DNA of 46,211 bases, the filler included, from Catajapyx aquilonaris (lineage: Eukaryota), in assembly GCA_000934665.2 (NCBI GenBank). It is 2 parts of 2 records of this genome, joined end to end, with 100 filler letters (N's around TTAATTAATTAA, not from the genome) between each part and the next. Parts side by side here need not be neighbours in the genome. Positions count along the whole stretch, not along the records: positions 23,171 to 46,211 come from JYFJ02005765.1; 1 more part is not named here. One strand, 5' to 3'. How positions within the stretch are numbered: position 1 is the first letter of the stretch; the number at the start of each line of letters is the position of its first letter. The notes beneath the pieces were generated by a model. The model did no database searches. It was not told the origin of the DNA and saw nothing but the letters and a program-made list of their open reading frames with translations. The translations under genes and the position numbers were made by a program. Shown one piece after another: positions 11,571 through 44,006 of this stretch.

Positions 11571-12658
11571 TCAGGGAGCAGCCGTGCCCGCTCCGCCCTG
11601 GGATGGCCCCGGCAGAGCGAACCCCAGGGCGGCCCTTGGGTCCGTGTGCAGGCGTAGGGCTTGCTCTAGGCGTTGTTCTTGCAGTCTCAGCGCTTCACTC
11701 AAGGTGTCAGCTGCCGTCTGCTGGTGCGACCCTCCCGACGCCGCTGCCGACGCCACCGACGCTGCCGCCGCCTGACTCACCGCCAGCCGGAGGGCAGCCT
11801 CGGCCTGGCTCCTCAACAGCGCCTCCGCCTGCATCCGCATCGCTGTTTCCGACGGCGCCAGCATCGCTGCAGCCTCTGCAGCACCCAAGCTCCTCATCAC
11901 CTGCGTGACAAAGAAAGACAACAATCAGCAACATTTCTTTTGCATTCCTGTTGTTTATTTAGCTCTTGGTCTCTGACCTGTTCGGCGGTTTGTTGACCTC
12001 CGACACGCATACCCCCGTCTGAAGGTCCGCTGAGCCGTAGTGGACTTTCGGACTGGCCCAGACCGAGCCTCCCCGCTCCCCCTTCGACACCACCGACTCC
12101 CCCACCTCCTCCTGCACCACCCCCACCACTGCCTCCNCCCCCACCACTGCCTCCTCCTCCTCCTCCTCCACCGCCGCCGCCGCCGACTCCTCCACCTGCT
12201 CCTCCACCACCTCCGCCGCCAACTCCCCCGACACCCACACCGCCGACGCCGACGCCCCCGACGCCCCCGACGCCGTGAGGGTGGGAGTGGGCGTGCTGAG
12301 CGTGGGCGTGCGTGGGCGCGGGGGTGTGTCCATGTGAGCTACCCCCACTTCCCCCTCCACCCCCTCCTCCTCCTCCTCCTGTACCTCCTCCTCCGGTGCC
12401 CACCACCTGGTCGACATACCGTTGTAAGTCACCACGAATGCCACCGCCAAACTTGAACCTGGTTACCTTGTCTCCATGCACTAAACCCGCCAGGCCCACG
12501 GGACCTCCTGACCCCGCTCCCGACCCCAACCGTCCGTCTTGTTGCTGCTGCTGTTGCTGCACCGCCGCTGCTGCCGCAGCCGCCACCGCCGCCGCCTGTT
12601 GGGCCGCCTGCTGAGCCGCCTGCTGAGCCGCTGCTACCGCCGCCACCGCCGCCGCCGT

Positions 12659-12691
<33 letters not shown>

Positions 12692-12993
12692 TTGTTGCTG
12701 TTGCTGTTGCTGTTGTTGCTGTTGCTGTTGAGATTGTTGTTGTTGCGGGGTGTTGCCTCCTCCTGGCGTTCCTCCTCCTGCTGCTCCGCCACCGTTGGCT
12801 CCTGAAGACACGGAGGCCGCCGAGACGGCTGCTGCGGCCGCGGCTGCAGCCAGTATGCTATCCCGCTCTCTCCTCTCGGCTGCGGCTCGGCTCAGCACAT
12901 ACTGCGCCGCGAACTGATGCTTTGGGTCCATCCGCATGTGCTCCATGTGGTTCAGTAGCCCTGTCCGGGGGAAAAAGACGGTGAGACGTGCGC

Positions 12994-13033
<40 letters not shown>

Positions 13034-16000
13034 TGGCTCTCCCAGGCCGGGGCGGGGTTAGGATAAGGTCCTATAGAGGCACAGGCGCCTACCCAACCAC
13101 CCCCGATAGACCCCCTGACGACCACGACCCTGCAGTCCAGCCTAGCGATGCTCTCAGGCCCTTTCGGCTCCCTCACATGTGCGCCATTTTGATTCTTCTT
13201 CTTTTCCCAAGGGTGAGTATCATATCTGCATTAATCTCAAGATCTTCAACCCCTTATCCCCAAAAACCTTCTCAAGTCGACCTATGTTGCCGGTTCGCCC
13301 AAAAATTCAGCATGATGGCATGTGGTTGCATTCTGCATTATTAATAAAACGGTAAGCTCTGGGGAGTTATGGGGATTGGATAGGTATTGTGAATGTGAGG
13401 CTGACATATCAGGAGAAAAGCTGAGCCCAACGCCATTTTTGCACGCACTGCGGTGCTTCCCTTTCCTCCGTCCAATCGATAGGAACCCAAAAATGAAATA
13501 CTGCGCAACCTCCATCATAACTCTTGTCTTGAGCTTCATCTATAAAAAAAAATATCTACAAAGATAGTCACGGACTATTGCGGCTAATTGGCGCAAAATC
13601 CCAATCGGGAATGGGTAAGAGGCATGAACTTCTTGGCGACCGCCTCAAGGAGAGACTTGAACGCGAGAAGGCCAAGGAAGCACCACCACCTCGAGATTTT
13701 CTACCATCGATCTGGAGATCTGCAAATGGCGGACCAGGGATTCGGAAGGATGGCTCCCATTGGGTCCATATTTTTTAAAGAGTGGAAATGTGTTTTGAAT
13801 TGAAGCGGTTAATTGTGTGACATCAGTCGGTGGCTTGATTTATTAGAGGGTGTCGTGCATGGTGCAACCCGCCCACGCCAGGACTAAAAGATGGCAATCG
13901 TCGCAATAGAGGGGGTCATTTAGCTCTAGTTACTCGCAAGGGAGAAGGCCATATTAAAAGTTTCAGTCGGAAGTCATAAAACACACCAGAATAAATTGCA
14001 GATCAGGGAGCCCAAATTAAACAGGGCACTGCTCAGAAAATTGAGCTTTATAATATTATTTTTCCATATTTGCAAATCTCTCGAGGTAATCAACCTCCGT
14101 GCCAACCGGAAATCTAAAACCCGCTAATTCAATTTGGCGACGGAGAAAATTTTCAAATTAGAAAGTCTCCGCTGCTCACTTTTCGCTCTCTGGCCAGGTT
14201 GCGAAAAATACATATACCTGAGCTGGCAATCACAACGTAACGTGTACTTAGCCAATTGCTAGCACATTACGCCTCATTTGCATACATACTTTATAACTAT
14301 TTCCCTGGAAATTGCCAGCAAATATCGAAAGAAACCGGCCTTAATTACGAGGGCGGGGCAAGATTAAGGGGTAAATATGTATATGATTAAGTGTTTGGTC
14401 ATGTTTGGTACGAGCACTCAAAAAGTGATTATTCTCATTTTTTTTGTGAAGATCTTTTGATTTCCCCCCTTCCCCACCCTTCCACTCCACCCACTTCTGA
14501 TCAGGGCGCTATAACTGGTCATATCTAACGGATGATCGTAGGTGATTTGTAGCCTCGTTTCGTGTCTGCTGAACTAATGGACACGGCGAATAAAGGCAAA
14601 CATGTGAGTTGCAAAATTCCGAGCTTAATCTGTCTTGTTTTGTGCATTTGGCATACAGCTAAGTGGACTAACTACCTTGATCAAAGATAGAGAAAATGAC
14701 TGGGTTTCTCATGAGTAATGGATCAACTGAACGGAAATGGCAAACAAACCGGCCACATAGCACTTCCGTGCACAATTTCTAAAGACTTGTGTTTGCACAA
14801 CTCAGTACCTTAGCCGCATGAATAACTCGAGGGTGAACCAGACATGGACTTCTGCCACTAGTCGATGGTAATTGCCCGGGGCATATTCATATGAGGCCAT
14901 GTAGTACATATCACGTCACAAAAGTGCACTAATTGTGGTTAAGATAATTTAGAAGCTGATATACTGAATACTTATTGGATGGATGCTACAGGTAAGTGAT
15001 CTGTTGATGGCCCCTGGCAAGTGCACCATGCTGTGAACAAGAGAGGCTTTTGGGTTGCAGAAGTGTCCAGGATACGTTAGTTTACCGCTCGGCATTCTGG
15101 GGGTGGAGTTCTCTCAACTTTGTTTACTATTCTATGCTTTGTATGTTGTAACTGCATGGAGCTGCCAGGTATTTATATGCGCATTCATATTAAATATCTT
15201 AACCACTGTGGCACTGTACTGTATAACTTATGTATAGTTTTTTTCCAAGGTGGGCGTTGCTTATACGTTACGAAATGATAATAGCGGAGTGTTACAAACA
15301 TGTGTCGGATCATGGGTGTGTCGGCCTTGGCTGGTTTCCAAGTTTGTGTTGACATGTTTACACTGTCTTCGCACCTGAGGCATCTTGCACAGATTTGGAC
15401 GATAAGGATACCTAGTGCAAAATAATCACATTTCTGGAGGGCGAACGACAGTTATAGAATGTATACAGATCTAGTAAAAAAGCAACTAAAATGTTTAAGT
15501 CTGTGCAATATTACGCGTAATTATCTGTCAATATTCTGAAACTATAAGTTTATCCTAAAATCTGGATATAGCTTCTCCCCAGCTATAGTTTCATTCTGCC
15601 ATCCAACTCTCATTCTTACGTATCAACTTCTGTAATTGTGTACTTGCCTTAAAGAAACAACGGTCAACCATTACAGGGTTACATACCCTAATGACACTTT
15701 ATCAAGTCCCACTTTCAAAAATGCGCGCACTGAAAAGCACATTAAGTACCAAGCCCCCAAGAATTTTCTTCAATCTGCATTTCTTCACAATATTATTTTG
15801 TATAAATTTAAACAAAATAGTCATCATAACAATGACTAAACCAAATTCTGGCAACCCCAAATTATGTCCCCCATTTTCTGCCCCAGCCAGGAAGAGACTA
15901 TTAGCACGTTGCTAGTCCGAGATTATAGGTGAAATCCCACCTGACTCATGGGTGAAGACGGCCTGACAGACGCTGCAGGGCCACATTCGGAGCGAGGACG

Positions 16001-17868
16001 TAAGCTGGGAGGTTTCCGGGTGACAGGCCAAATGTTTCCGGAGGCTGCCTTCGTTGACGTAGTGCTTTCCGCAGACGGGGCAGGGATGGTTGGCGGTGCG
16101 GCGCTTGGCTGTCGGGGGCAAAGAGATACAGCCCGTGGGGGGAGGCCATTCGGGGCACAACAGGTCACAACGCAGCAACCCTCCCCATCCCTTGAATATA
16201 TTCATCTTGCTCTCACACACATCCAATTTTTTTTTTTCGTTTTCATTTCTTTCTCACCAATCCCAACCTTTCTTCTACTCTCGACCAATCAACCGCCATC
16301 CCAGTTGGTAATAGCCCTTGAAAAATTTTGGACCCCCAGGAGCGCCAAAAAGGAACCCCCTTTTGTACATCCCTCCGCCCCTTTCTCAGCAGGCGATTTC
16401 GGGGGACAACCAACAGCAGTGTAGCTTCAGAGTGACGTCGATTGGCGATGACGAGAACTACACAGACACACAAACGCACAACACTATTGCAGTAGTCAGC
16501 GAAGGGGAAAAAAATTTGTTTGCCAGGTTGACATATTCCCATCGGCGGCCAAAAATATTGAGTAGTGTGTTTATTTATTATTTTTTTATTACTTTGTGGT
16601 AGTTTCTTTTCTCAAAGAACCCGCTTTTCGGGGCCGCCGCCTGACTCAAGCAAACCCGTGCAAATCCCTTGGGAGCCCAATTTGGGATTTATGCCCGGAT
16701 TGCCTTAACCCTTTGCCACAACCACGCCGGAAAAAAATAAGTGTCACGGTATACATTCCAGTATACAAAAGAGTACGCCTAGAAGAATTTATTGCAAAAC
16801 GGTACAATAAGAAATTAACACAAGCATAAACAAAAAAAGGAGGGTATAAATCCGCACATTCTCTCGTTGTCTTCACAATTAATCTCAAAATACTGGCCCA
16901 ATACGTACGGGCACAACAATACTGCACAAAAACCATACGTCCTGAGTGGTTTATTTCTGCACTGATAACACTGATACCAGGGGGGCCACTTTAACTCCCT
17001 CAGTCTACAAAAAACTCCCCGTCAAAAAAAACCACACGAAACGACAAAAAAGTTTCTTTTTAAACGTTGTGGCAAAGAGTCAGGCAGCGCTTAACCATAT
17101 CCGGGCAAAGTCAAAATCGGTGCCTCGAAAAAAACAAAAATGCATTGGAACCGGGGCTTGATCTACAAGAAAAAGCCTCTCACAAACTACACTACAGTGT
17201 TGGGAAAGTCGATTCAGAAAAGTAACAAGTTACGGTTACATCTGGGCTTATGCCTCCTATGTTACTATAGTCTATAGTATTTCATGTATGAAAATTTTAG
17301 GTTGCTGTGGCGCTAAAAGGCTGCATGACAAAGGCGCCATTTTGGCTTTGTGACATCACACACACTTGACGCTAGCAATCAAGCGCATGTGACTGTTCTA
17401 ATATTATGCAACCAAAAATCCCTATACTGTAACTAACCTACATGCTATCCAAAAATGCAAGTAACTAGTATCTCGTTACTTTACTTCCCAACGCTGACTT
17501 CAGATCTGACTTTTTAATTATTTTTTGACAATATGAGAGCTGAGCACTCTGTAATAATTAATTTGAATGAAGATGAAGCCCCGGCGCCATATTGTGTATA
17601 TAGTTTTGAATGCTTATTTTGTCGATGGGGAGATGGCCCCCCGCCCAATAATCTCACCGTCCACGGGGCCCCCTTGTTGGTGCGGCCACTCTTGGAAGCC
17701 ATAGGCAGAGGCAGAGGGGAAGTCGGGCCACTTACTGGCGACGCCGGAAGCGTTGGGGTCCTTGTGCGTGTGCTTCATGTGCTCCATCAGCACCTCGCCT
17801 CCCAGGAACATCTTGTGGCAGATGGGGCAGCTGGTGGCGTTCGGCCCGCCAATCAGCGCCGCGTGTTG
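11571..17868 (-). CDS. C2H2 zinc-finger transcription factor, 5'-incomplete (~537 aa in window)
   Basis: Exons 17868-17736, 16108-15941, 12960-11978, 11900-11571, all GT-AG and phase-consistent (1,1,0). Fingers CPICHKMFLGGEVLMEHMKHTH, CPVCGKHYVNEGSLRKHLACH and CSVCQAVFTHESGLLNHMEH (spans an intron), followed by polyA/polyQ/polyG tracts and a helical C-terminus. Confidence 0.88.
12659..12745. repeat. Coding CAG/CAA trinucleotide repeat (polyQ)
   Basis: (ctg/ttg)n on the plus strand, encoding QQQQSQ(n) in the zinc-finger gene. Confidence 0.9.
12996..13030. repeat. (CT)n/(GA)n microsatellite
   Basis: Pure dinucleotide run in the intron, just upstream (minus-strand sense) of the 12960 acceptor. 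Confidence 0.95.
17195..17496. mobile_element. Degenerate hAT-like MITE in intron
   Basis: Ends CAGTGTTGGGAA / TTCCCAACGCTG with subterminal GTAAC/GTTAC motifs; TSD not recognisable. Confidence 0.55.
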
Positions 17869-23961: not shown

Positions 23962-24272
23962 GGAAATGTTCACGTAACGTTCAATGAACATTCCAATAGA
24001 GCATTCTATGTATGTCCAGAGATGAACATTCACAGAACATTCCCTGAACATACGGAACATTCAGATCATTCCCTGCACATTCACGAACGTCCACTTCATG
24101 TTGGTGTGTCAATGGGGAACATTCACTGAACGTTCACAGAACATTCAAATAAAACATTCCATGTATGTCCCTCTACGAACATTCACGGAACGTTCACTGA
24201 ATGTACAGAACATACATCACATTCCCTGCACATTCACGAACGTCCACTGAACGTTCGTGTGTCAATGGGGGT
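23962..24272. repeat. Degenerate GAACATTC/GAACGTTC motif array, probably TE-internal
   Basis: Many gaacattc/gaacgttc motifs; block cattccctgcacattcacgaacgtccact..gtgtcaatgggg occurs twice (~24067 and ~24220). Confidence 0.7.
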
Positions 24273-24546
24273 ACTGAACCAAGAGCTACCAATTATAGTT
24301 CCAGCAATGAATGAGAGAAATTACCAATGTTAATTACGTACACGTAGGCTACAGGAATAACTTGCCCAACTATAGGACTGCAGTTTGAAAGGCTCTCTCT
24401 ATATACGAACCTGCAAGCGCACCTTATTATTACATGAGCTGGAGTCTCGGCCTGGCTTCTGGGAGTGTGATTTTGCCACGGGGCAGGGGCAGGGGCAGGG
24501 GCAGGGGCAGGACCCGAGGCGAGACACGTACGAGAAGAACCTGAAC

Positions 24547-24650
24547 CAAGATGGCCGCCAGAACGTTTATTCCAAGCCCCGCCCACTTTGAATGGCTGAC
24601 GTCATCGAGCTATACACGAGCGAAAAATGAGGCGTGGCTTGTGACGTCAC
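24547..24650 (+). promoter_or_regulatory. Putative promoter of the ankyrin-RING gene
   Basis: YY1/Pho-like CAAGATGGCCGCC (24547), GC box CCCCGCCC (24577) and two perfect CRE palindromes TGACGTCA (24597, 24642), ~310 bp before the candidate first coding exon. Confidence 0.5.
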
Positions 24651-24960
24651 GTTCGAATAACGAAAGCGCGGTGTTGTCAGATCATGCAAGAGAAATTAAC
24701 GTACACGAATTTAATCGGCATTCATTTGAAATATGCAAAGTTAAATTATAATTAAGTGTTAAGATAGAGTCATCAGGTTCGACTCCATTTGTTTCTTAAG
24801 CAATATAATAACATATGATGATGGTGGCGCACTTGTTCCTTGTCCATTGTTTATTCATGTTGGAGACAAAAGCAGCAGCAGCAGCCGTCGTTCTCGTCCA
24901 GTTGTTGTCTCCCTAAATAATCCATCACTTATTATTCGAAGTAGGCCTCTCAACATCAGC

Positions 24961-25056
24961 ATGAAGGTCGAGATGAAGCAGCAGACTCGTCCATCGTCAG
25001 GAACCAGGGGAGACGACGACGAAGGCCTGGACCACCACAAAGGAATAAAGGATAAG
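24961..25056 (+). CDS. Candidate first coding exon of the ankyrin-RING gene
   Basis: ATG..MKVEMKQQTRPSSGTRGDDDEGLDHHKGIKDK|gtgggt, phase 0, compatible with the acceptor ttccag|26699. Confidence 0.45.
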
Positions 25057-25639
25057 GTGGGTGAAAAGCCCAGCAAAGAGAATGTTTGGAGGACTTGGAA
25101 CTCAATACGGAGAATCACTCGCATTCGAACGTTTAAAAAAATATTTAAAAAAATCCCGCAGGTCCTTCAGGTTGGAATATAACAGCGAAAAGAACATAAG
25201 AATAATGATTATAATAATAATAATAATAATAATACATCAACAGCAACATCATGACATTTCCCTATGAGGGGTAGTCAGCGATGAAGGGAGAATAATAATA
25301 ATAATACATAACTCACATGATAACTAACAGATGATGGTTTAATATAACTAATAGGTAATAGCAAGAGCTGGTAATAGATAATTAGTAGTAATAGTAGTAG
25401 TCGTAGTCTTACTAGTAGTATAGCCTAGTGCGAATAAGAAGATTAACATAGAAGGAGTAGAAGACGACCAACAACAATAATCATAATCACCAGTAGATGA
25501 TAACTAATAAATAGCCGATGATGGATATTGAAGCTAATTAATGATAATGAATAAATAATTAGATATATAGGCCTAATAATAAACTAGCATATAGTAAATA
25601 ATAACTGATAATTTACTAACAGCTCATTCATTGCAATTG

Positions 25640-25925
25640 TAATTTATTAATTTCAATGATCATGTATTAATTTCAATGATCATGTATTAATTTCAGTTGC
25701 TATTATTAATTTCAATGATCATGTATTAATTTCAATAGCTATTATTATTTATTAATTTCAGTGATCATGTATTAATTTCAATAACTATTATTATTTATTA
25801 ATTTCAGTGATCATGTATTAATTCCAATAACTAATGTTATTTATTAATTTCAATGATTATGTATTAACTCCAAAAACTATTATTATTTATTAATTTCAAT
25901 TAGTATTTATTAAATCTAATTATTA
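25640..25925. repeat. AT-rich minisatellite
   Basis: Tandem degenerate units built from tattaatttca(a/g)tgatcatg and aactattattatt. Confidence 0.85.
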
Positions 25926-25980
25926 TGCTTCTTCTTACTAATTATGTATGAGATATTATGTTATTAACTAGCAGTTGATA

Positions 25981-26266
25981 GACCGAAGCAGGTTGGTGTA
26001 GTGGATATGGAGTCCGCCGGCTAATCGGGAGGTCCGGGGTTCGAATCCCGGGGCCGGTGACCCTGACCGTGGTTTTCTGTGGTTTCCCATGGTCCCCTCC
26101 AGGACAATTCCAGGGTCGTTTCCGTAATTAATAGGCCACAGCCGCTTCCTTCCTTTCCTATCCTATCCCAAAGAGCAAAGGAAAAATGAAAGCAAAGACA
26201 AAAAAGATAAAAGACAAAACAAAATTGGGACGAATTTTTTTTTCTTCTGTACGAATTAATAATTAT
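25981..26266 (+). mobile_element. tRNA-derived SINE, copy 2
   Basis: GACCGAAGCAG head, A box TGGTGTAGTGG, B box GGTTCGAATCCC, body CCGTGGTTTTCTGTGGTTTCCC..GGCCACAGCCGCTTCCT; purine-rich tail resembles copy 1. 3' boundary approximate. Confidence 0.85.
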
Positions 26267-26698: not shown

Positions 26699-29600
26699 AT
26701 GATGCAGGAGAATGGGTGTCCACAAGGCTGCGAGACTGAACCGGCCACGAATAAGCCGGGATATGACGGGATGCCATACTTGGACCTGTGGGAAACCGCT
26801 TGCATCGCCGCCTCGACTGGCGACTTGGACGTGCTGGGGTCCATCCTGGAGGAAGGCATAAACTTGAACCAGATCAGAACGAACGGCAAGACCCTGCTGC
26901 ATGTGGCTGCGTCCGTTGGCCACATGCAGGTTGTAAGACTCCTGCTGCAGCATGGGGCAAACCCTCGGATCCTCAACAACTGGGGGGGCACGCCCAGTAT
27001 GTTGGCACTGTTGCGAGGTCACTACTCGGTTGCACGGCTCCTGCAGAAGAAGGAACTAATGGTGGATCAAATGTCTGACAGTGAGGCCACTGCAGACGAT
27101 TCCAGTGAAGGAGAGGTAAGCCGGACACAGAAAATCATCGCATGAAGTTCACACATGTTTGATCCCGCAGGATGTAACGCCGGACGATGAAGCGTCAGCA
27201 GTTGTGATGTTCCTGCAAGTGTGTAAAGCCGGAATATTGCAGGCGGTGAAGGAAGCCGTGTCCTGTCGTGGTGCTGAGGCGATGCTAAGTAGCGAGAGGA
27301 GCGCACAGATAAAATGCGGACTCCACATGGCTGCAGGGGAAGGAAAGGCTTCCGTCATGATCTACCTTCTGAGCCAGGGTTGGCCGGTGAACTTCTACGA
27401 TGAGAAAGGTGCCACTGCATCGGGATAACATCTGCTCTTTTTAAACGATGTGCTATTCCATAGGTATGACCCCGCTCAGTTATGCGGCCAAAGGCGGTTT
27501 CCTCTGCATGTGCGAGCTGCTTATGGGACGCGGCGCCAAGATTAATTCGAAGGACCAGAACGGAAACGAGCCTCTCCATGCTGCGGTGTTAGCAGGTCAC
27601 TTGGAGATCGTCAGGTCTCTGCTAAAGTCGGGAGCTACTTTGGAGGCCAGAAACACGTTGGGGTTGGTTCCGCTCCATCTGGGAACGTTGCGAGGACATG
27701 TGGAGGTTGTCCGTCTGCTGCTGTCCGAAGGGGCAAATTCCACGGCTAGAAGCTTGGACGGGAAAACTTACATAGACTTAGCCAGAGCCATCGGCGTAGG
27801 ATACACGTTTGAACCGCTGGGAGAGGTACGCCTGATTCGCAGTAAAAGAATTCGACTTAATTGTGTAATTTCACAGGCAGAACGACATGCGTTCATTTAC
27901 GCCTGCCTGCAAGGTAATCTGGCCGAAGTGAAAGAGTGGGTGTGGATGAGGGCTGCGGACGTGGTGCGGACGGTGGATCCGGACAACGGAAGCAGCGCGA
28001 TCCACTTCGCTGCGAGCACCGGACGCTACGAGGTCACCCAGTTCCTGCTGGACCACGGAGCTGCGATCAACCAAACGGACCACGACGGACGGACTCCCTT
28101 GCATTTCGCCGCAATGTCCGGAAACGAGACGATGGTCCGATTCCTCCTGCAGAAGGGAGCGGACCTCAGGATAAGAGCCGCTAACGGCGATACAGCTCAG
28201 TACGTCGCTTTGAGGTGCGGGCACGAGTTGATAGCCATCCTGCTGGAGCTTAAGGAAAGAGAAACGGAGCAGTTGACTCCAAACGAGCTTCAACCGGACA
28301 GCCCTAACGAAGGGGTAATTACCAATTTACATTCAATGTGTAGATTTTTTGTGATTGACCATCCCGTGGGTGACGGATAATCGGAGTTGTGCTGTACCGT
28401 TTGTTGCTCCCGTACAGTCCCGATAATTGTAAATCTGGCAGTGTATGACGTTACATCGTTGATGATAATTTTTCTCCAGGTGACCGATCGCAATCATGTC
28501 TTCTTTGAAGCGTGCAAGGGGAACAAATTGACTGTCGTGAAAGAGTGGGTGTTGGTTCAAGCCGTGGATGCTCTCAGGCTTCGGGATGAGGACGGACGGA
28601 GAGGGATTCATTGGGCTTCGTTAGGTGGAGCCTTCAACGTCGTCCCGTTCCTGCTTGACCTAGGGGAGGACGTGAACTTAACGGATAGAGCGCAGTGGAC
28701 ACCCTTGCACTTTGCTGCGGCTTCCGGAGAGGACACGGTGGTCAGCTTGCTGTTGGTGCGAGGTGCTGACCCGCGGAAGCAGGACATCCGGGGGCACACG
28801 GCGCGAGATGTGGCCGAACTTCGAGGCTACACGTCCATAACGTTGGAGCTAGAACAGAAGGAAAAGGCCATGCCGCCTGCACACGAAGCGCATGATGAAG
28901 ACGAAGAGGTACGTACTTGCGCATTGACATCGTGGGTGTTACATTGCCATGCATTTTCAGGATGAATACAACACGCACCCGTTTCTGCAGTGTTGCTGCG
29001 ATGGACGGCTCGAGGACGTGAAGGACTGGGTGGTCAGGAAGAAGATGGACGTGAATCTGAAGCGGGACAAGAACGGCTGGGGATCGATGCATCTGGCAGC
29101 CTGGGATGGTCACCTGGAGGTCGTCCGCTTCCTGCTGGACCACGGGGCGGACATAGACCTTGTGGGAACATACGACACAACCTCGCTGTACTTGGCCTCA
29201 CTGTTCGGCCATGAACTGGTGGTCAAGCTTCTCCTGTACCGAGGCGCAAATCTGAAGCCAAACCACAGTTTGGGCGACTCGCCAAGACACGCGGCTGAGA
29301 TGGAAGGGCACTGGACAATCGTGCGGCTTCTGCAGCAGAAGGAGAAGGAATTGGCGAACCGGCCCAGGAAGCTGAACAAGCCCATCAAGCGGGAAGTCAC
29401 GACTAAGCTGATGGTAAGGATTGATGTACGCACTGTACGTTACCTAATCGACGGTCTTTGCAGCCGTCACTGAACGACATCAAGTCGGAATCGTCCCTGA
29501 AAGACCTGAACTGCCTCCAGCTGCGGTTCCTCCTGCGGAACCAAGGCGTGCGGTTCAGCAAGGCCTGCAAGAAGTTGGATCTCCAGGAGAAGGCGGCCGT

Positions 29601-29853
29601 GCTTCTGCGGGCCAAGCAGGCTGGGACGCTCCCGCCCAGCGTCCCCAGCATCCCGCCCAAGACCAAGTCTCCTGGACCACCGCCTGCGTCGTCACCCGAG
29701 GGGTCATGCAGGGTTTGTAAGAAATCGCAGATGGACTGCATCTTGCTCGATTGCGGCCATTTGGTCGCATGCTTCACGTGCGGACAAGCATTGAGCGTAT
29801 GTCCCTGCTGCGCCAAACCAGTCGTGAAAGCCGTGAAGATTCTGAAGGCCTAA
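26699..29853 (+). CDS. Multi-module ankyrin-repeat protein with C-terminal HeH/SAP-like domain and C3HC4 RING (putative E3 ligase; 908 aa, 940 aa with upstream exon)
   Basis: Exons 26699-27115, 27171-27408, 27464-27825, 27877-28314, 28480-28908, 28961-29413, 29464-29853; GT-AG introns mostly 50-55 nt; continuous frame. Many G-x-T-P-L-H-x-A-A motifs; RING C-x2-C-x11-C-x-H-x3-C-x2-C-x6-C-x2-C. Confidence 0.9.
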
Positions 29854-30735
29854 CGAGCGTGATAACAGTGCAAGGAAGCAGCAGTAATTAGCGGTAATGT
29901 GTGAAACCGAGCTTTGGAGTTCAGAACCAGGCACAAACTGTAATTGTCCCAAAATGTAATTAGCGAAAGTGCGAAAATCAACATGCAATTTGCGCGGTTT
30001 CGCAATGCTTAGACATATTTGGCGTTGTCACGAATAAGCGGTAATAATATGTGAAACCGAGCTCTGGAGTTTGTGTCTCAAATCGAAGCACTTTAATTAG
30101 CCAACTACAAGCTGAATTGTCACCAAAATGTAATTAGCAAAAGTGCGGAACTCAATGTGCAATAATTCTGAAACTGCAAAGCTTGGCATCGCAATGTTTA
30201 AACGTATTTGACGTCACGTATTCGACTCGCAAACTTGTGCGTCGATTCATAAGTTATGGAAAGTTAAATTATTTTTTTTGAGCCTATAAGTTACATTTAA
30301 AAAATTTTTAAATATTCACATGATGTATCGGACGTTAACAAGTTCCCAAGATATGCTGCGACACTCAGGGATTTAAAAGTCTGAATCGTTGTTGTACCTG
30401 CTTTAAGACTGAAAGTCATGTGATTTTTACTGTTAGTTTAGTACAATTTTTTAAAAAAAGTATTAATGCTCAAAATATTTGTTTGATACTTGTTGCAGTT
30501 AATAGGATGTAAGTGCAAATCTGGTTTTGTGTATGTGACACATGTTCGTTACAAGTATGATTGTCCGTTTGTTCTTCGTGACACAAATCTCGCAAGACTC
30601 GCTACATTCCATAAGAGCCAAACGTTGAAAAAAAATGTACTGTGATAATATTTTATTATTAATATTTAAGTGAGTACATGTCTTTTTGTGTGTTACTGTG
30701 AGTTAATTTTCATTTCAAGCAAAACTTGTTGCAGG

Positions 30736-30741
30736 AATAAA
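30736..30741 (+). terminator. Candidate polyadenylation signal for the ankyrin-RING gene
   Basis: AATAAA ~880 nt after the stop, just before the satellite. Confidence 0.35.
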
Positions 30742-30867
30742 TGCCATTTGGCAAGCTCCTGCTTGAAAACTGCATTTTGAATAGATCGTCGATCCGTACT
30801 CGCTAACGCAACAACAAATTGGGGGAAACTTTTTTTCAACTACTCGGCCAACTAATTTTGAGTCGAC

Positions 30868-31515
30868 GAAAATATTAAACGTGCAGATTTGAGTCGTTCA
30901 AAAATTAAACACGCAGATTCGAGTCATGCAAAAATTAAATGTGCGGATTTATGTTGTACAAAAATTAAACGTGCCAATTTATGTCGTTCAAAAATTAAAC
31001 ACGCAGATTCGAGTCATGCAAAAATTAAATGTGCGGATTTATGTCGTACAAAAATTAAACATGTGTAAATTTGAGTCGTACAAAAATTAAACGTGCAGAT
31101 TTGAGTCGTGCAAAAATTAAGCATGTGTAGATTTGAGTCGTTCAAAAATTAAACGTGCCGATTTGAGTCGTACAAAAATTAAGCATGTGTAAATTTGAGT
31201 CGTACAAAAATTAAACGTGCAGATTTGAGTCGTGCAAAAATTAAGCATGTGTAGATTTGAGTCGTTCAAAAATTAAACGTGTAGATTCAAGTCGTGCAAA
31301 AATTAAACGTGCCGATTTATGTCGTTCAAAAATTAAAGACGCAGATTTGAGTCGTTCAAAAATTAAACGTGTAGATTCGAGTCGTACAAATATTAAACAT
31401 GTAGATTTGAGTCATACAAAAATTAAACTTGTGGAAATTTGAGTCGTACAACAATTAAGTGCGTGTAAATTTGAGTCGTACAACTATTAAGCACGTGTAA
31501 ATTTGAGTCGTACAA
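30868..31515. repeat. 30-32 bp tandem minisatellite (~21 units)
   Basis: Consensus AAAATTAAACGTGCAGATTTGAGTCGT(T/A)CA repeated head-to-tail with no unique spacers. Confidence 0.95.
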
Positions 31516-32008: not shown

Positions 32009-34357
32009 TCACTTCTTTGTCGTTCCAAATCCGGAGAAGCCCATGATCGCAGCCATTTCCATGTCCGGATCGCCACTACCTTCGCCTTCTTGGAGCTTCC
32101 GCTTCTTCTCTTTGCGCTTTTCCTTCCTGTACTCCTTCATCTTTTCCTCCTCCTCCTTCAGCTCCTTAACGCGCTGCTCGATGTCGTACTCTTTGTGCTT
32201 TTCCTCCATTTTCCGCTTGTTGGAGTCGAACCTCTTCCGCACCTGCAAACCCAATTCATTAGTACAGCTTCTTGTAAATTAATTGAGGGAATTCTAGACG
32301 AGGGGAAATGGTTCCCGACTCATTCACAGTATATTGCATGAATGTGCAAATATATGTTATTTGTAAAAGGATCTCTTCCGAGATTGATTCTGCAGTGTTC
32401 ATCAATAATTTTTATTCAAGGTTGTTCCTGATAATTATTAGATGAAAAAGTGAAACTCAATTTAAAAATGACTGTCCCCCAAGGAGGGAAAAACCGGACT
32501 CAAAATGTCGAGAATTTGCAAAAAAGATTTTGCACTTGAAATGGCCAAAGCTAAAAAGATTCCGGAATTTTAATATTAATTTTTCAGACACTAGTTGATT
32601 CTGGCCAATTTTTTGAGTCATTTGTCATAAATGGCAGTTGCACACTGTGGCAACACTGCAAATGGCGGGTATTACAATGTGCAATTGCCTGCAGTTAAAA
32701 TTTCAATAAAAATTATATTTCTTGAACTACAAACTCAAAAAATTCGCCATCATCAATACATCTGAAAAAATTAATATTTAAAAATAATTCCAGAAGCTTT
32801 TTTAGTCCCAGCGGCGACCATTTCAAGTGCAAAATAATTGCAAATTCTCGACTTTGGAGTCCAGGTTTTCACTACTCGGGGGGGACAGGCATTTTTAAAC
32901 TACGTTTCACTTTTTCATCTAATATTATGCGGAACAACTTCCAATAAAAATTATTGCAGAACACTGCAAAATCAATCCTGAGAAGGAATCCTTTAAAAGT
33001 TTTTAGGCCGCGTTTACATGCAAGCGATATGATCAGCAATGTGCAGCGATCATCGTTGAACAAATTGAAATTAATGGTTTGGGAATAATATTAGTTTCAT
33101 TGTTTTTTAAACCCTAGAACTGTGACATAGGGTCTTTTAGGACCGCATCCATATTTTAATTTTTATTAATTAATACTTTTTCAATGTATTGACTATATGC
33201 AATCATTCTTTGAACAATGCCTAAAGTGATCGCTAATTCAAAATAAACATGCACTTCCTGTTATATACTTTTTGTTAAATGGCAAAAAGTTAATTGTAAT
33301 TATTTTAATTCCTTTGGGGTACTAAAAGACTCCACGTCATGGTTCCAGGGTTAAATAAATTCATTTCGGGACTTCTAGACAAGTAAAATTGTTCCCGGTG
33401 CATTCATTTTGAATGAACCTGTAAATGTGTCTTGTTATTATTTGTAAAATGTGCTGTCATTTGGGCTGGATTCATCAAAGTAATGTCGTAAGTCATATTT
33501 TCTTCATGACCGGTTACGACAACACTAATCGCGGGCTGAGAATCATCTTCGGTTGTCTCCACTTTTCAACGAAATCGAGCCAACAGCGGATTGACATTGG
33601 ATGCGTTATGTTCGTTCATATCCACCCAATGTAGGTTGTAATAACGGCATCATAAACCTTCTGAGAGTTGGAAACAGTTTCGTTCAAGTCCATAAGTGAC
33701 CAGAATTATTCAGTTCTGAATATGTAAATGACTCTCCTGAAAAAAAATTAAAAAGTGGAGTTAACCAAAGATGATTCTCAGCCCGCGACTTGATGGATCC
33801 ACCCCAGAGTATGTGTAAGTGGAAATGATGGCGATGGGTCACCTGGTCCAGGCTGGACCGCTCGATCCTCATGGACATCCCGAGGTTCCGCTGGTGCTTC
33901 TTCCCGTTGATGTGGTCCAGGAAGTTGATGGAATCCTTCACCACGCAGTCGCAGACGTTGCAGTAGTACCCGCCCGTCTGGGAAGTGGGCGTGTTCTTTG
34001 TGATAACCAGGCTCTTCCCCAGCTTGGAGTCCAGGTCGACCCTGTATTCCCTCTGGCGCAGAAGCTCCCTCTTGACCGGAGGCTGCTTCTGCTTCCCTTT
34101 CTCCTGGGCCTCCAGCTCCGCCCTGATGCGGTCGGCCGCCATGGCCTCGTACTCCTCCGCATCCCACTTGCGACGGTGGTCATCCGGACGCTGCCCCTGC
34201 AACACAATTCAACAAAGTCATACCACAAAAATGATCTGCACATTCCATAATTAAGACCTTGCACTGCACGGAAACCGTTCCAATCATGCGCATCACACAA
34301 TGCACCTCCGCACACCCTTCCTTCAACCCCAGTTATACTCACACTTGTACCCGCCAT
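32009..34357 (-). CDS. ZMAT2: Zinc finger matrin-type protein 2 (Snu23 homolog, spliceosomal B-complex), 200 aa
   Basis: Exons 34357-34343 (MAGTS|gtgagt), 34196-33843, 32242-32009. Diagnostic [42 protein letters not shown] and [11 protein letters not shown]. Confidence 0.97.
32368..32992. mobile_element. Foldback MITE with ~250-bp imperfect inverted arms (AGG..CCT termini, Kolobok-like)
   Basis: Left arm aaggatctcttccgagattgattctgcagtgttc..ttagatgaaaaagtgaaac is the reverse complement of right arm gtttcactttttcatctaa..gaacactgcaaaatcaatc..ggaatcctt; right end followed by TTAA. Superfamily is inferred. Confidence 0.75.
33112..33350. mobile_element. piggyBac-like MITE (empty copy)
   Basis: CCCTAGAAC..GTTCCAGGG ends with TTAA flanks, subterminal GGGTCTTTTAGGACC / GGGGTACTAAAAGAC; homologous to 37964-38709. 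Confidence 0.8.
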
Positions 34358-35019: not shown

Positions 35020-35710
35020 GTGCATTAGGTATGAAATTGGTATAAATTGATGGTAAATTAAATCTGGTATGATATTGGTATGAATTGATGTTAAATGAAA
35101 TTAAATCTGGTATGAAATTGGTATAAATTGATGTTAAATTAAATCTGGTATAATATTGGTATGAATTGATGTTAAATTAAATTAATTCGGGTATAAAATT
35201 GGTATAAATTTATGTTAAATTAAATCTGGTATGAAATTGGTATAAATTTATGTTAAATTAAATCTGGTATGAAATTGGTATAAATTGACGTTAAATTAAA
35301 TTAAATCTGGTATGATATTGGTATGAATTGATGTTAAATTAAATTAATTCTGGTATAAAATTGGTATAAATTGATGTTAAATTAAATCTGGTATGAAATT
35401 GGTATAAATTGACGTTAAATTAAATCTGGTATGAAATTGGTATAAATTGACGTTAAATTAAATCTGGTATGAAATTGGTATAAATTGACGTTAAAATTAA
35501 ATCTGGTATGAAATTGGTATAAATTGAAGTTAAATTAAATTAAATCTGGCATGAAATTGGTATAAATTGATGTTAAATTAAATTAAATCTGGTATAAAAT
35601 TGGTACCAATTCATCTAAAAAATTGGGTATAAATGGGTATGAAATTAGTGTACATTAGGTATGAAATTGATGTCAAATTAAATTTGGTATAAAATGGTAT
35701 GAAATTAGTG
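35020..35710. repeat. 38-43 bp tandem minisatellite with degenerate flanks
   Basis: Unit AAATTAAATCTGGTATGAAATTGGTATAAATTGA(T/C)GTT repeated tandemly. Confidence 0.95.
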
Positions 35711-40600: not shown

Positions 40601-41029
40601 ACAAGTGGTGTTCAGAAAGTTCACGACTTTTATGATATTTTATTTTTCCACATCGTCTCCTTTCATGTTAATAAGCGTTGGAGTTTCTCCCATTGTTCTC
40701 TCCGGCCCCCCCAAAAAATTGTTTTTTTAAAACCCCACCCAACATCTCCACAGCAGAAATCACTTTATAGACAGATCCGTGGACCCTTCCATGAAGTTGA
40801 TTTTGATATTGGGGAGTAGGAAGTCGTTTTGTAGCACTAACCATGCGAAAGAGTCATCCTTGTCACAGAAAATAAAATCATGAGTTGGTCTGTGACAAGT
40901 GGTCGAGAGGTCATCACGGTAATTAAAACAATAAATATTTGAAAATTGGTCGGAGGAATGAGATATATGTAATCAATAGGCAATTAATGCAGGATAATAT
41001 CTTTTCCAGAGCATATTTGAAGAGATGAG

Positions 41030-43149
41030 ATGGATCCCATGCCCTTCCTGTATGCCTGCAAGGAGGGGAATCTGCAGGAGGTGACCCAGATGGTTTGGTG
41101 GAGTGGCGGGCTTCCGGGTGTTGTGAACTTGCGGGACGGATGGGGCGACACTGGACTCCATGTTGCTGTCAAGAGAAGAAGGGTGGGCGTGATCACGTAT
41201 CTCTTGGATTTGGGTTGGCCCATGGATCAGGAGGGCGAGTACAACAAGACCCCTCTGCACTACGCGTGCGAGACAGGCCACTACCGCACCTGCAATACAC
41301 TGGTGCTACGAGGAGCAAACATCCATGCCAAGGACGTGTTTGGAGATACGCCCTTGCACCTGGCTTCGTACGGAGGCTATTTCTGGATAGTCAGTCTCTT
41401 ACTGGATGCTGGGGCATGGCCAGAAGAACATGGAGCAAACCACAGGACACCGCTGCACTGTGCCGCATACAACTCTCGGCTGAAGGTGGCTGAGATGCTC
41501 ATTGATAGTGGGGCGGACATCATGGCAGTGGATGAGGAACACATCACTGCATTGAACATCGCTGTGCTAAACGTGGATCAGGATATGGCCAGTGTAATTA
41601 AAGCGGTGAGTCTTCATTGTTAGCACTTGAGCATCTTCCACTCCTGCTTTTGTGCTTGACAGGGGCACCAGAAATACTTCCTGAACGCTTGCTGGGAAGG
41701 CCGGCTGGACAGAGTGAAAAAAATGGCTGAAAGTGAAGGAATTGTACGACTGACCGAGATGAGGAACGATATGGGGAGGAGCGGGATTCATCTGGCTGTA
41801 ATGGGAGGCAGGACGTCAGTGGCCAACTACCTCTTGAGCGTCGGGTGGCCTCTAGAGCAAAGCTGCAGCAGTCACGAAAGGACTCCTCTTCAGTACGCAT
41901 CATTAAATGGCGATTTGCACCTCGTCCAGGTTCTGATAGGAAAAGGGGCAAATGTTGAAGCGAAGGACAACTGTGGGTATACACCTATTCATCTCGCCAC
42001 ATGCAGAGGCCACGCTGACTTGGTTGCCCTCCTTCTGCGGAGCAATGCTAACGTCGAGATCTCGGACAACACAGGCAGGACACCTCTGCACTGTGCGGCA
42101 TTCAAAGGAAGGAGCCGGGTTGTCCTACACCTGCTTGCAAACAGAGCCCAACAAACGGCCCAGGACAAAGACAAAATGACTCCTCTTGATCTGGCCAGGA
42201 AGGAAGGAAAAGAAGAAATTGTAAGGATTCTGGAAGTAAGTACTTCTGATGTTTGGAAGCAAAATCAATCATCAATTTATTTGTTTATTTATTTATTTAC
42301 TTACTCATATGTATGTATGTGTATGCTTGTACAGTTTACTCCAGATGTAACGACCTCGGCTGTAGTGACTTTCGGTAATAACAATCTCGAATTTGCTGGT
42401 CCCGCCATACTTCCATAAGGCCCTGTGTACGTTGCAAAGTACGTATAATTACCTCTCAATACGCAGGTGAGTCCGCAGGCGTTTCTGGGCAGCTGTATGA
42501 AAGGAGAGCTGGACAAGATCAAAGCGGATGCTGAGGTATCGGAAGGGATGATTGAATGGCTGTCACAAATGAGTGACTGGGATGGACACAGCGGCCTGCA
42601 CTTGGCGGCAAAGGAGGGAAGGGCCGAAGTCATTGCGTACCTTTTGGACCTACAATGGCCAGTTGATCAGAGGAACAGGGAAGGCAACTCTGCCCTTCAT
42701 CTGGCTGCTGGAAGGGGTGACCTCTGCACATGCGAGGTCCTGATGCAAAGAGGGGCAAAGGTCAACCTGAGGAATAGGGACGGACATGAGCCCATCCACC
42801 TGGCCGCCGTGAAAGGCCATACATTGACAGTCATATTTCTTCTGCGATCTGGAGCCAAGGTTGATCTCATGGATAGCAATTGCCAGTTGATGACAGAGGT
42901 AAATGATCAGTAATCAATATTGTAATTATTTTGAAAAAAAGGTGTCCTTGTGAGCCAAAACGTGTGTAAGTCTACGCTCGCAGTATGTCTAATTGCATAT
43001 CTTTTCAGGACATGAGGAATGTCATTGGCAGCGTTACCACCCCCACACCTTGTCAGGAAACCTTGTCGGCACCTCCTGAAGATGAAGTACAGTTTGTTTG
43101 CGCTTACAATCGTAACTATACCGAAGTCGAGCTGTGTGATTCAGATTGA
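41030..43149 (+). CDS. Ankyrin-repeat protein, three exon modules (~573 aa; may have upstream exons)
   Basis: Exons 41030-41605, 41663-42235, 42467-42898, 43009-43149, all phase 0 GT-AG. Many TPLH motifs. An acceptor-like cttttccag at ~41001-41009 suggests an upstream exon; the last exon is less certain. Confidence 0.85.
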
Positions 43150-44006
43150 GATCCTGCCCTTCCGACAGAAATGTTTGCTGCTTATTATTTCATAATTCCC
43201 AGTTATTTTCATAGACCGTTCTTATCAGTGATACGTTTGGCGGAACGTACTGAGGCTTTGATTTAGTTTCTGTCCCTCCAATACACCAAACATTTCATGT
43301 AGGCATTACTATTAGTCTATTACACATGTGACCTTTTTTAAACTGAAGAGTACAATTTTGGAAAAAAGTCACAACCGATTTTTTTTAGTAAGAGCAATTA
43401 AAGTGACCAATTATTGGCAGGGCTTAATGCGTCCAGTTTATGCCATATTTAGATTATGGACCAGAATTACATGCAGAAATGAAGATAATTAGTTGATCAT
43501 GAGTTACATTGTAATGTTGGATTTTGCATAGGAAAAAAAACGGGTATAAAATAACAAAGGTCATACTTTGGAAAGTGGAATGAAATGTTTAAACTCTGCG
43601 CTTTTCTGCTGCAAGACCTGTTTTGATCAATGAAGAAAATGAGTGAATACAAGCGCAACAGCAGAGGATTGGATCTCGGGACAAAGTGTATCTGCGAAAG
43701 GACCTACTTTCTATTCTGTTTATATGGAGTTTTTGTTTTCAGTTATTTAATTTATTTTACACTGTGAGATTAGTGAAGTGGCGACATGAAAGACTCAGAA
43801 AGAAATTAGGTCAAGGCTGTAATTGTGCTGGTGATGTTCCTGCGTGGTCAGGACTGTCTGCATTTATGTATGGTAAATCCATAGCAAGTAATTAAATCCT
43901 GTGGATCAACCGCTTGTTCAGGATTCACCGTCAATCATGCAACAAGCCGTGAGTCCAATAACAGGTGATAGTGTCTGATGCAAAACAAGTGACGAATAAA
44001 AAAACG

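Follow-up and report, generated by a model that had tools for sequence, protein, structure and literature searches.

Mind bomb proteins combine at least two RINGs with a MIB/HERC2 and ZZ region. In the plant XB3/XBAT C3HC4 RING ligases, an ankyrin array is followed by a single C-terminal RING (PMC3596331, in part). RNF34 and RFFL (CARP1/CARP2; PF22968, PF23632, PF13920) engage membranes through a FYVE-like domain and through palmitoylation (PMC12211564, in part), and their N-terminal region serves substrate recognition (PMC8959631, in part). Here we report on a gene of Catajapyx aquilonaris in which ankyrin modules are followed by a helix-extension-helix (HeH) and a RING of RNF34 type. It lies in a window of 46,211 nucleotides, the window being the whole stretch of DNA that was analysed, filler included. 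This chimera is real, spliced and selectively maintained, its donor can be traced, and its family is local to the genome.

The gene was modelled at 26699-29853 on the plus strand as seven exons, separated by GT..AG introns of 50-165 nt, whose translation contains no internal stop; with a tentative first exon, the resulting eight-exon model encodes 940 aa, again with no internal stop. The first six of the seven exons form five ankyrin modules, all bordered by phase-0 introns, with about 21 repeats counted by eye. Module 1 (26699-27115) has about three repeats by eye and an acidic linker. Module 2 (27171-27825) is of a long type with about six repeats and is additionally cut by one phase-1 intron into exons 27171-27408 and 27464-27825. 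Module 3 (27877-28314), of a short type, module 4 (28480-28908) and module 5 (28961-29413) have about four repeats each, the last of them followed by a basic linker. Each of the four single-exon modules that were scanned matched Pfam ankyrin families (best E 7e-17, 4e-26, 2e-15 and 2e-19), and module 2 was assigned from the model and its alignment with the remaining modules. A 50-nt phase-0 intron (29414-29463), which we refer to as the fusion intron, leads to the last exon (29464-29853). This exon encodes an HeH of SAP/LEM-like type (29464-29625), homologous to the second HeH of RNF34/RFFL according to profile scores, shuffles and predicted helices, a Pro/Ser-rich linker (29626-29700) and a C3HC4 RING of RNF34 type with a 13-residue tail and the stop codon (29701-29853; Pfam zf-C3HC4_3, E 1.4e-09). 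A preliminary description had reported five ankyrin modules ahead of a phase-0 terminal exon; the model and Pfam agree with this, and the peptides that it quoted are all present.

Splicing was assessed with contigs of one public run, X1, the kind of which is not on record, no run being recorded as RNA. The X1 contigs skip three of the seven modelled introns (27826-27876, 28909-28960 and 29414-29463, all with GT..AG ends), thereby joining the 3' end of module 2 to module 3, module 4 to module 5, and module 5 to the tail. Each joint is carried by a single contig at a depth of 3-5, and the remaining four introns have no bridging contig. The fusion junction 29413^29464, which the preliminary description had predicted to be spliced, is bridged by one of these contigs with 55 letters on its short side. 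Module 5 is covered by contigs 4 and 5, whereas exons 1-3 are uncovered and no contig spans the whole gene; such gaps were not counted against exons. The contig pieces listed over the gene differ from the modelled sequence by zero letters, and the genome search returned no identical intronless copy of the gene. Contigs 5-7 extend in the 3' direction to 30719, shortly before an AATAAA at 30736, which delimits a probable 3'UTR at 29854-30741. Thus, the X1 contigs over the gene behave like spliced RNA, as judged from their sequence.

At the 5' end, the tentative first coding exon (24961-25056, +; no X1 cover) encodes 32 aa, has a phase-0 donor and is in frame with the rest of the model. Upstream of it, a probable promoter was delineated at 24548-24649 (+) by AAGATGGCCGC at 24548 and by two occurrences of TGACGTCA, at 24597 and 24642, motifs that we take to be YY1-like and CRE-like. 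The region is conserved in two further genomic copies, at 79% and 70%, and from its sequence it probably acts as a promoter. These copies, L086 and L087, hold the cassette of promoter and first exon (24500-25120 in the window). A similar short ORF and the phase-0 donor are retained in L087, and the alignment shows an early stop in L086. They may be the 5' ends of paralogues, the gene bodies of which are out of view because each copy lies only 2-4 kb from a contig end. Intron 1 contains a tRNA-like repeat at 25990-26165 with a summed X1 depth above 10,000, probably a SINE. Tandem arrays occur at 23969-24270 (period 153) and 25626-25958 (20-46 nt) and, beyond the gene, at 30857-31515 (30/62) and 35028-35605 (38/81).

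The genome's own RNF34 was found on contig C1238. Its last exon shares about 60% identity with named RNF34/rififylin proteins of arthropods, and FYVE and SAP_RNF34_RFFL exons lie upstream, both matches being below the Pfam cut-off (FYVE, E 2.6e-05). The last intron of this gene is 56 nt long and in phase 0, and the exon behind it starts with PSL, as the last exon of the chimera does; the acceptor of the fusion intron is homologous to that of the last intron of RNF34. The phase-0 boundaries of the RNF34 exon and of the ankyrin modules thus allow the join to be spliced in frame. The chimera HeH scored 26.9 bits against a profile built from database RNF34s only, among 7889 ORFs, and 29.1 bits compared with a best score of 9.3 in 1000 shuffles. 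Pfam PF22968 did not match it; among seven aligned exons, that family matched the true RNF34 only. The structure predicted for the tail comprises a helix-extension-helix (helices at residues 9-13, 17-26 and 37-53), a disordered linker (pLDDT below 50 at residues 58-78) and a RING. The HeH fold gave Z scores of 4.4-5.3, values that are common, to Rho N-term, EndoVII, emerin LEM, PIAS1 and CARP2. In the Atlas, RNF34/RFFL clusters rank first for the tail (0.91, 176 shared features). No HeH match was obtained in the MIB, BIR-bearing IAP, MYLIP-like and Neuralized-like loci that were searched; the comparison loci yielded a single row, which scored 7 bits and lay on the strand opposite to an IAP-like locus. 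A tree of HeH and RING together places five ankyrin-linked copies in a single group (94/86). This group clusters with the genome's own RNF34, apart from the 17 RNF34-type rows from outside (88/82, not starred), which is compatible with a local origin but no proof of one. Taken together, the tail is very probably a copied RNF34 last exon, with the second HeH, the RING and the stop codon. The colinearity with the RNF34/RFFL C-terminus and the exon shuffling at a phase-0 boundary put forward in the preliminary description are both borne out, by the HeH profile, the RING scores and the acceptor position and phase in the one case, and by the same phase-0 start of the genome's own RNF34 last exon in the other.

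The chimera is not alone. A genome search with the RNF34 exon returned 29 matches, the best 17 of which are RNF34 itself and 16 copies of its tail. Two pairs of copies, each at 96% identity, could represent alleles, hence a count of up to 16. Ankyrin modules lie upstream on the same strand in 14 of the 16, and the other two sit near contig ends. The copies show three junction types. In type A, the whole last exon is used with its native acceptor (the window gene, C5378, C4056, C4915 twice, C8307 and C1055, the last without the intron). Type B copies consist of the RING only, with a new short exon start (C5397, C3192, C10179, C15414 and C3887 twice); C1618 is a RING-tail copy with a different leader. 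In type C, which is intronless, the last ankyrin helix runs into the apparent end of the last helix of the HeH (C5974 and C10715). In-frame phase-0 donors were predicted in all 11 intron-bearing copies examined, and the ankyrin module next to the RING is of the short type in A and of the long type in B. Type B proteins are 71-75% identical to RNF34. For four of the six copies, the DNA alignment continues about 140-210 nt into the RNF34 3'UTR (72-74% overall), and for the other two it stops about 0-30 nt beyond the stop codon. The last exon of the window gene gave no DNA match to RNF34. There were probably two or more captures of the RNF34 tail, and on the simplest reading type A is the older and type B the younger, with later gene conversion as an alternative to a younger type B capture. 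C5378 has an identical seven-exon layout with the same splice sites as the window gene. Two multi-module ankyrin genes (L063-L065) were also seen downstream of RNF34, at C1238:21900-26600 (+) and about 41400-43500 (-), the first about 7.6 kb from the stop codon of RNF34. An origin by tandem duplication with this first gene was not supported, since its five modules in the tree do not group as sisters with the modules linked to the RING.

The Met and CPxC positions of a RING have roles in contact with the E2. All eight zinc ligands are present in the window RING. Four further positions are near-fixed in the 252 of 257 RNF34-type database proteins that matched the RING pattern: a large hydrophobic residue after Cys2 (252), I/V/M/L/F in the CPxC motif (252), the linchpin R/K (251) and an aromatic F/Y in the tail (251). 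At these positions, the window RING has Lys, Cys, Ala and Leu, respectively. Three of the departures are shared with C5378, the linchpin of which is Val. The C4915/C8307 and C5974/C10715 subgroups bear other degenerate signatures, and five type B paralogues retain every canonical residue. The partly available text of PMC12326332 places Ala among the weakest linchpin variants, with one E2 used, and also reports that some human RINGs naturally carry Ala there, that XIAP is still active with a non-Arg linchpin (Tyr), that activity is tuned by the linchpin, which can also change the E2 that is used, and, in the Discussion, that heterodimers of an inactive and an active RING are a precedent. The tail Leu aligns to XIAP F495, for which an F495L structure is available (4IC3). 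The F495A change abolishes chain formation (PMC3944466, in part), and XIAP is activated by dimerisation through its C-terminal tail (PMC5655547, in part); by analogy, we infer that RNF34 RINGs may dimerise as well.

Compared with C5378, the window gene has a dN/dS of 0.32 (0.24-0.40) overall, 0.25 in the HeH and 0.15 (0.03-0.48) in the RING, the linker being the least constrained part. Ankyrin variable positions (11 of 70 differing) did not depart from the framework (30 of 258 differing; p 0.41, dN/dS 0.37), so no signal of immune-type diversifying selection was seen within the scope of that test, namely one pair, 10 repeats located by pattern and one set of variable positions.

It is very probable that a copied RNF34 last exon was set behind an array of exon-bounded ankyrin modules. 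By this step, the FYVE-like N-terminus of RNF34, with its endosomal membrane tie and substrate binding, would have been swapped for five capped ankyrin blocks, and the product would probably be a soluble, multivalent adaptor that binds proteins. Its RING is predicted to fold, under purifying selection, without the usual residues that prime E2~ubiquitin. Targets bound by the ankyrins could then be brought to an active RING partner, either RNF34 or a paralogue with an intact RING, as MDM4 does for MDM2; alternatively, an unusual E2 would be used. A weak or partner-dependent ligase, relying on such a partner or E2, is the function that we somewhat favour for the window gene.

Other readings concern both where the tail came from and what it does. 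That it derives from Mind bomb or an IAP, its likeness to RNF34 being convergent, is largely refuted and appears very improbable. The RING tree that the preliminary description had suggested as a check gave a divided answer. In AU tests over 52 columns, an IAP-like grouping was rejected (p 0.0008; a BIR is confirmed in C321a only, the other two IAP-like labels being a guess), whereas grouping of the chimera RING with three MIB RINGs was not (p 0.15), and RING-only trees place MIB RING3 on the side of RNF34. A 26-row RING tree, from which 23 of 49 rows had been dropped, supports the RNF34-side branch at 97/97 with two long-branch outsiders also inside it; the RINGs C321b, C567, C14086 and C184 did not fit the RING pattern and were excluded from the trees. 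Arthropod clusters combining ankyrins with zf-C3HC4_3 exist in the Atlas (408 aa with 200 members and 402 aa with 60 members), one of them named mib1-like, and the top PDB matches of the RING are IAP RINGs. As RNF34 RINGs are absent among the PDB matches, however, this ranking does not run counter to an RNF34 origin. Moreover, RING alignment scores are about twice as high to RNF34 (133-166 to 20 rows) as to the three MIB RINGs (67-83), with 96 for the BIR-bearing IAP, MIB and BIR-bearing IAP loci gave no HeH match, the acceptor position is common with RNF34, and MIB ankyrins are merely 26-38% identical to the window modules. We therefore retain RNF34 as the source of the tail. Just as improbable is a neutral transcribed duplicate heading for loss: X1 depth is low and stops are found in the second C3887 copy and in an ankyrin exon of C4915a and C8307, but the window gene and C5378 are both open over about 907 codons at a dS of 0.26, a distance at which dN/dS values of 0.32 overall and 0.15 in the RING indicate that the protein is maintained.

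As regards activity, a partner-dependent or weak ligase has two competitors. The gene may encode an autonomous, fully active ankyrin-RING E3 ligase acting on ankyrin-bound substrates like plant XB3/XBAT; this is the view of the preliminary description, and we regard it as possible but rather unlikely. The zinc ligands and tail length are retained, the RING is under purifying selection and a changed linchpin may tune activity or redirect E2 choice (PMC12326332, in part), but four simultaneous departures at positions fixed in 251-252 of 252 RINGs, three of them common to C5378, speak against it. Since five RING-only paralogues keep the complete set of canonical residues, this reading suits those paralogues. 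The same four changes, together with the degenerate signatures of the C4915/C8307 and C5974/C10715 subgroups, could also be those of a catalytically dead decoy or scaffold, whose RING and HeH only bind and would, for example, inhibit RNF34-type ligases or shield ankyrin-bound targets. The E2-binding loops and the tail length are kept, and sequence cannot separate this decoy, which we find improbable, from the partner model. The departures at the linchpin, tail aromatic and other positions thus favour a weak or partner-dependent ligase, then an autonomous one, then a decoy.

The wider genome provides a setting for these copies. The ankyrin module is very abundant: of 846 candidates, 150 were scored, and 125 of these matched at E up to 1e-10. 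Related modules flank kinase (Pkinase match) and TPR ORFs. At L077 (C5288), a TPR_10/TPR_12 ORF is followed on the same strand by several ankyrin modules of the family type, a possible TPR-ankyrin fusion. One could imagine a mix-and-match system of intracellular surveillance across the genome, in which an ankyrin sensor has been joined repeatedly to the RNF34 RING (probably at least two captures, with three junction types), to PERK-like kinases and to TPR arrays, and in which intact RING ligases pair with degenerate ones that broaden or tune the range of targets; we consider this unlikely at present. Two loci were set aside as lying outside the RNF34-tail family, L080 (ANK+SAM) and L079 (VPS9+ANK), probably conserved genes that we assume to be ANKS-type and VARP, respectively. 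Within the window, a second gene at 41021-43100 (+) consists of three ankyrin modules of the long type, and no RING was found downstream of it up to the contig end. A conserved gene at 32009-34208 (-), with a U1-type zinc finger (Pfam zf-met, zf-U1, SNRNP27) and presumably ZMAT2/Snu23, converges on the chimera, and 11897-13057 and about 17700-17850 (-) contain exons of an unrelated gene, which encodes C2H2 zinc fingers and a long low-complexity tail of Ala, Gln and Gly. The genome holds 89 zf-C3HC4_3 (PF13920) matches, many for one animal, and about 30 of the 89 loci were inspected. The gene with three RINGs on contig C6 is presumably this genome's MIB.

The preliminary description knew of no named family with this architecture and regarded the gene as a lineage-specific ligase. 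The former holds for the RNF34-type database proteins examined, since ankyrins occur in 0 of 257 among the matches listed (the best 120 of 277 and the best 150 of 15,635, 13 being shared). The latter has in its favour this absence from the top matches and the moderate tree support (88/82). The gene is also not a one-off but one member of a family with as many as 16 copies. Neither HeH nor RING was present in the 87 top database matches to an intronless paralogue, and a search of longer proteins with the window last exon gave 0 of 300 candidates scored, which is weak evidence either way. An unnamed earlier occurrence of the fusion may exist among the arthropod Atlas clusters mentioned above. 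A combination of ankyrin, HeH and RING was not found in the literature covered, which leaves out most subscription journals and supplements. Another rearrangement of the tail was seen in P0121, an unnamed database protein of 1331 aa with nine RNF34-type HeH repeats followed by an RNF34-type RING.

The donor gene, a splice position in common with it, a younger capture with donor 3'UTR and a spliced junction are all available in one genome, which makes this a well-documented birth of ubiquitin-ligase-like genes by exon shuffling. Because ankyrin-RING ligases such as XB3/XBAT and Mind bomb arose before, no new mechanism is established; what goes beyond routine is that the tail was probably captured more than once and that surface residues of the RING were lost by degrees. 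With related ankyrin arms and RINGs that range from intact to degenerate, the family is a natural series for the tuning of RING residues and the origin of pseudo-ligases.

The chimera shares with RNF34/RFFL the second HeH, the RING type, the 13-residue tail and the last-exon boundary. It differs in that the ankyrin repeats replace the FYVE-like finger and the first SAP, the Pro/Ser linker is longer and four RING positions are changed. No FYVE was detected in the exons scanned by Pfam, and the modelled N-terminus has no Cys cluster; the first SAP (PF23632) was unmatched in five exons scanned, exons 3-4 being ankyrin and the 32-aa exon 1 lying outside the scan. Lacking both domains, the chimera is not a member of RNF34/RFFL. 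With Mind bomb it has in common ankyrins upstream of a zf-C3HC4_3 RING, but it has one RING, an HeH and different ankyrin modules, and the exons scanned contain no MIB/HERC2, ZZ or BIR domain, in line with the lack of ZZ/MIB domains noted in the preliminary description. The XB3/XBAT ligases, which the Atlas ranks as most similar to an intronless paralogue (0.95), have the same order of ankyrin array and single C-terminal RING; their origin is independent, the RING of the chimera being preceded by an RNF34 HeH. RING_XB3-XBAT31 (PF24921) did not match the window exon at E up to 10 and matched three other aligned exons weakly (best E 0.16). By fold, the chimera RING belongs to the class of the MDM2-MDM4 heterodimer, which offers, as an analogy only, a precedent for the pairing of an inactive with an active RING (PMC12326332, Discussion, in part). 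If the layout of the chimera functions at all, by analogy it would be as an ankyrin-RING adaptor-ligase like XB3/XBAT or Mind bomb.
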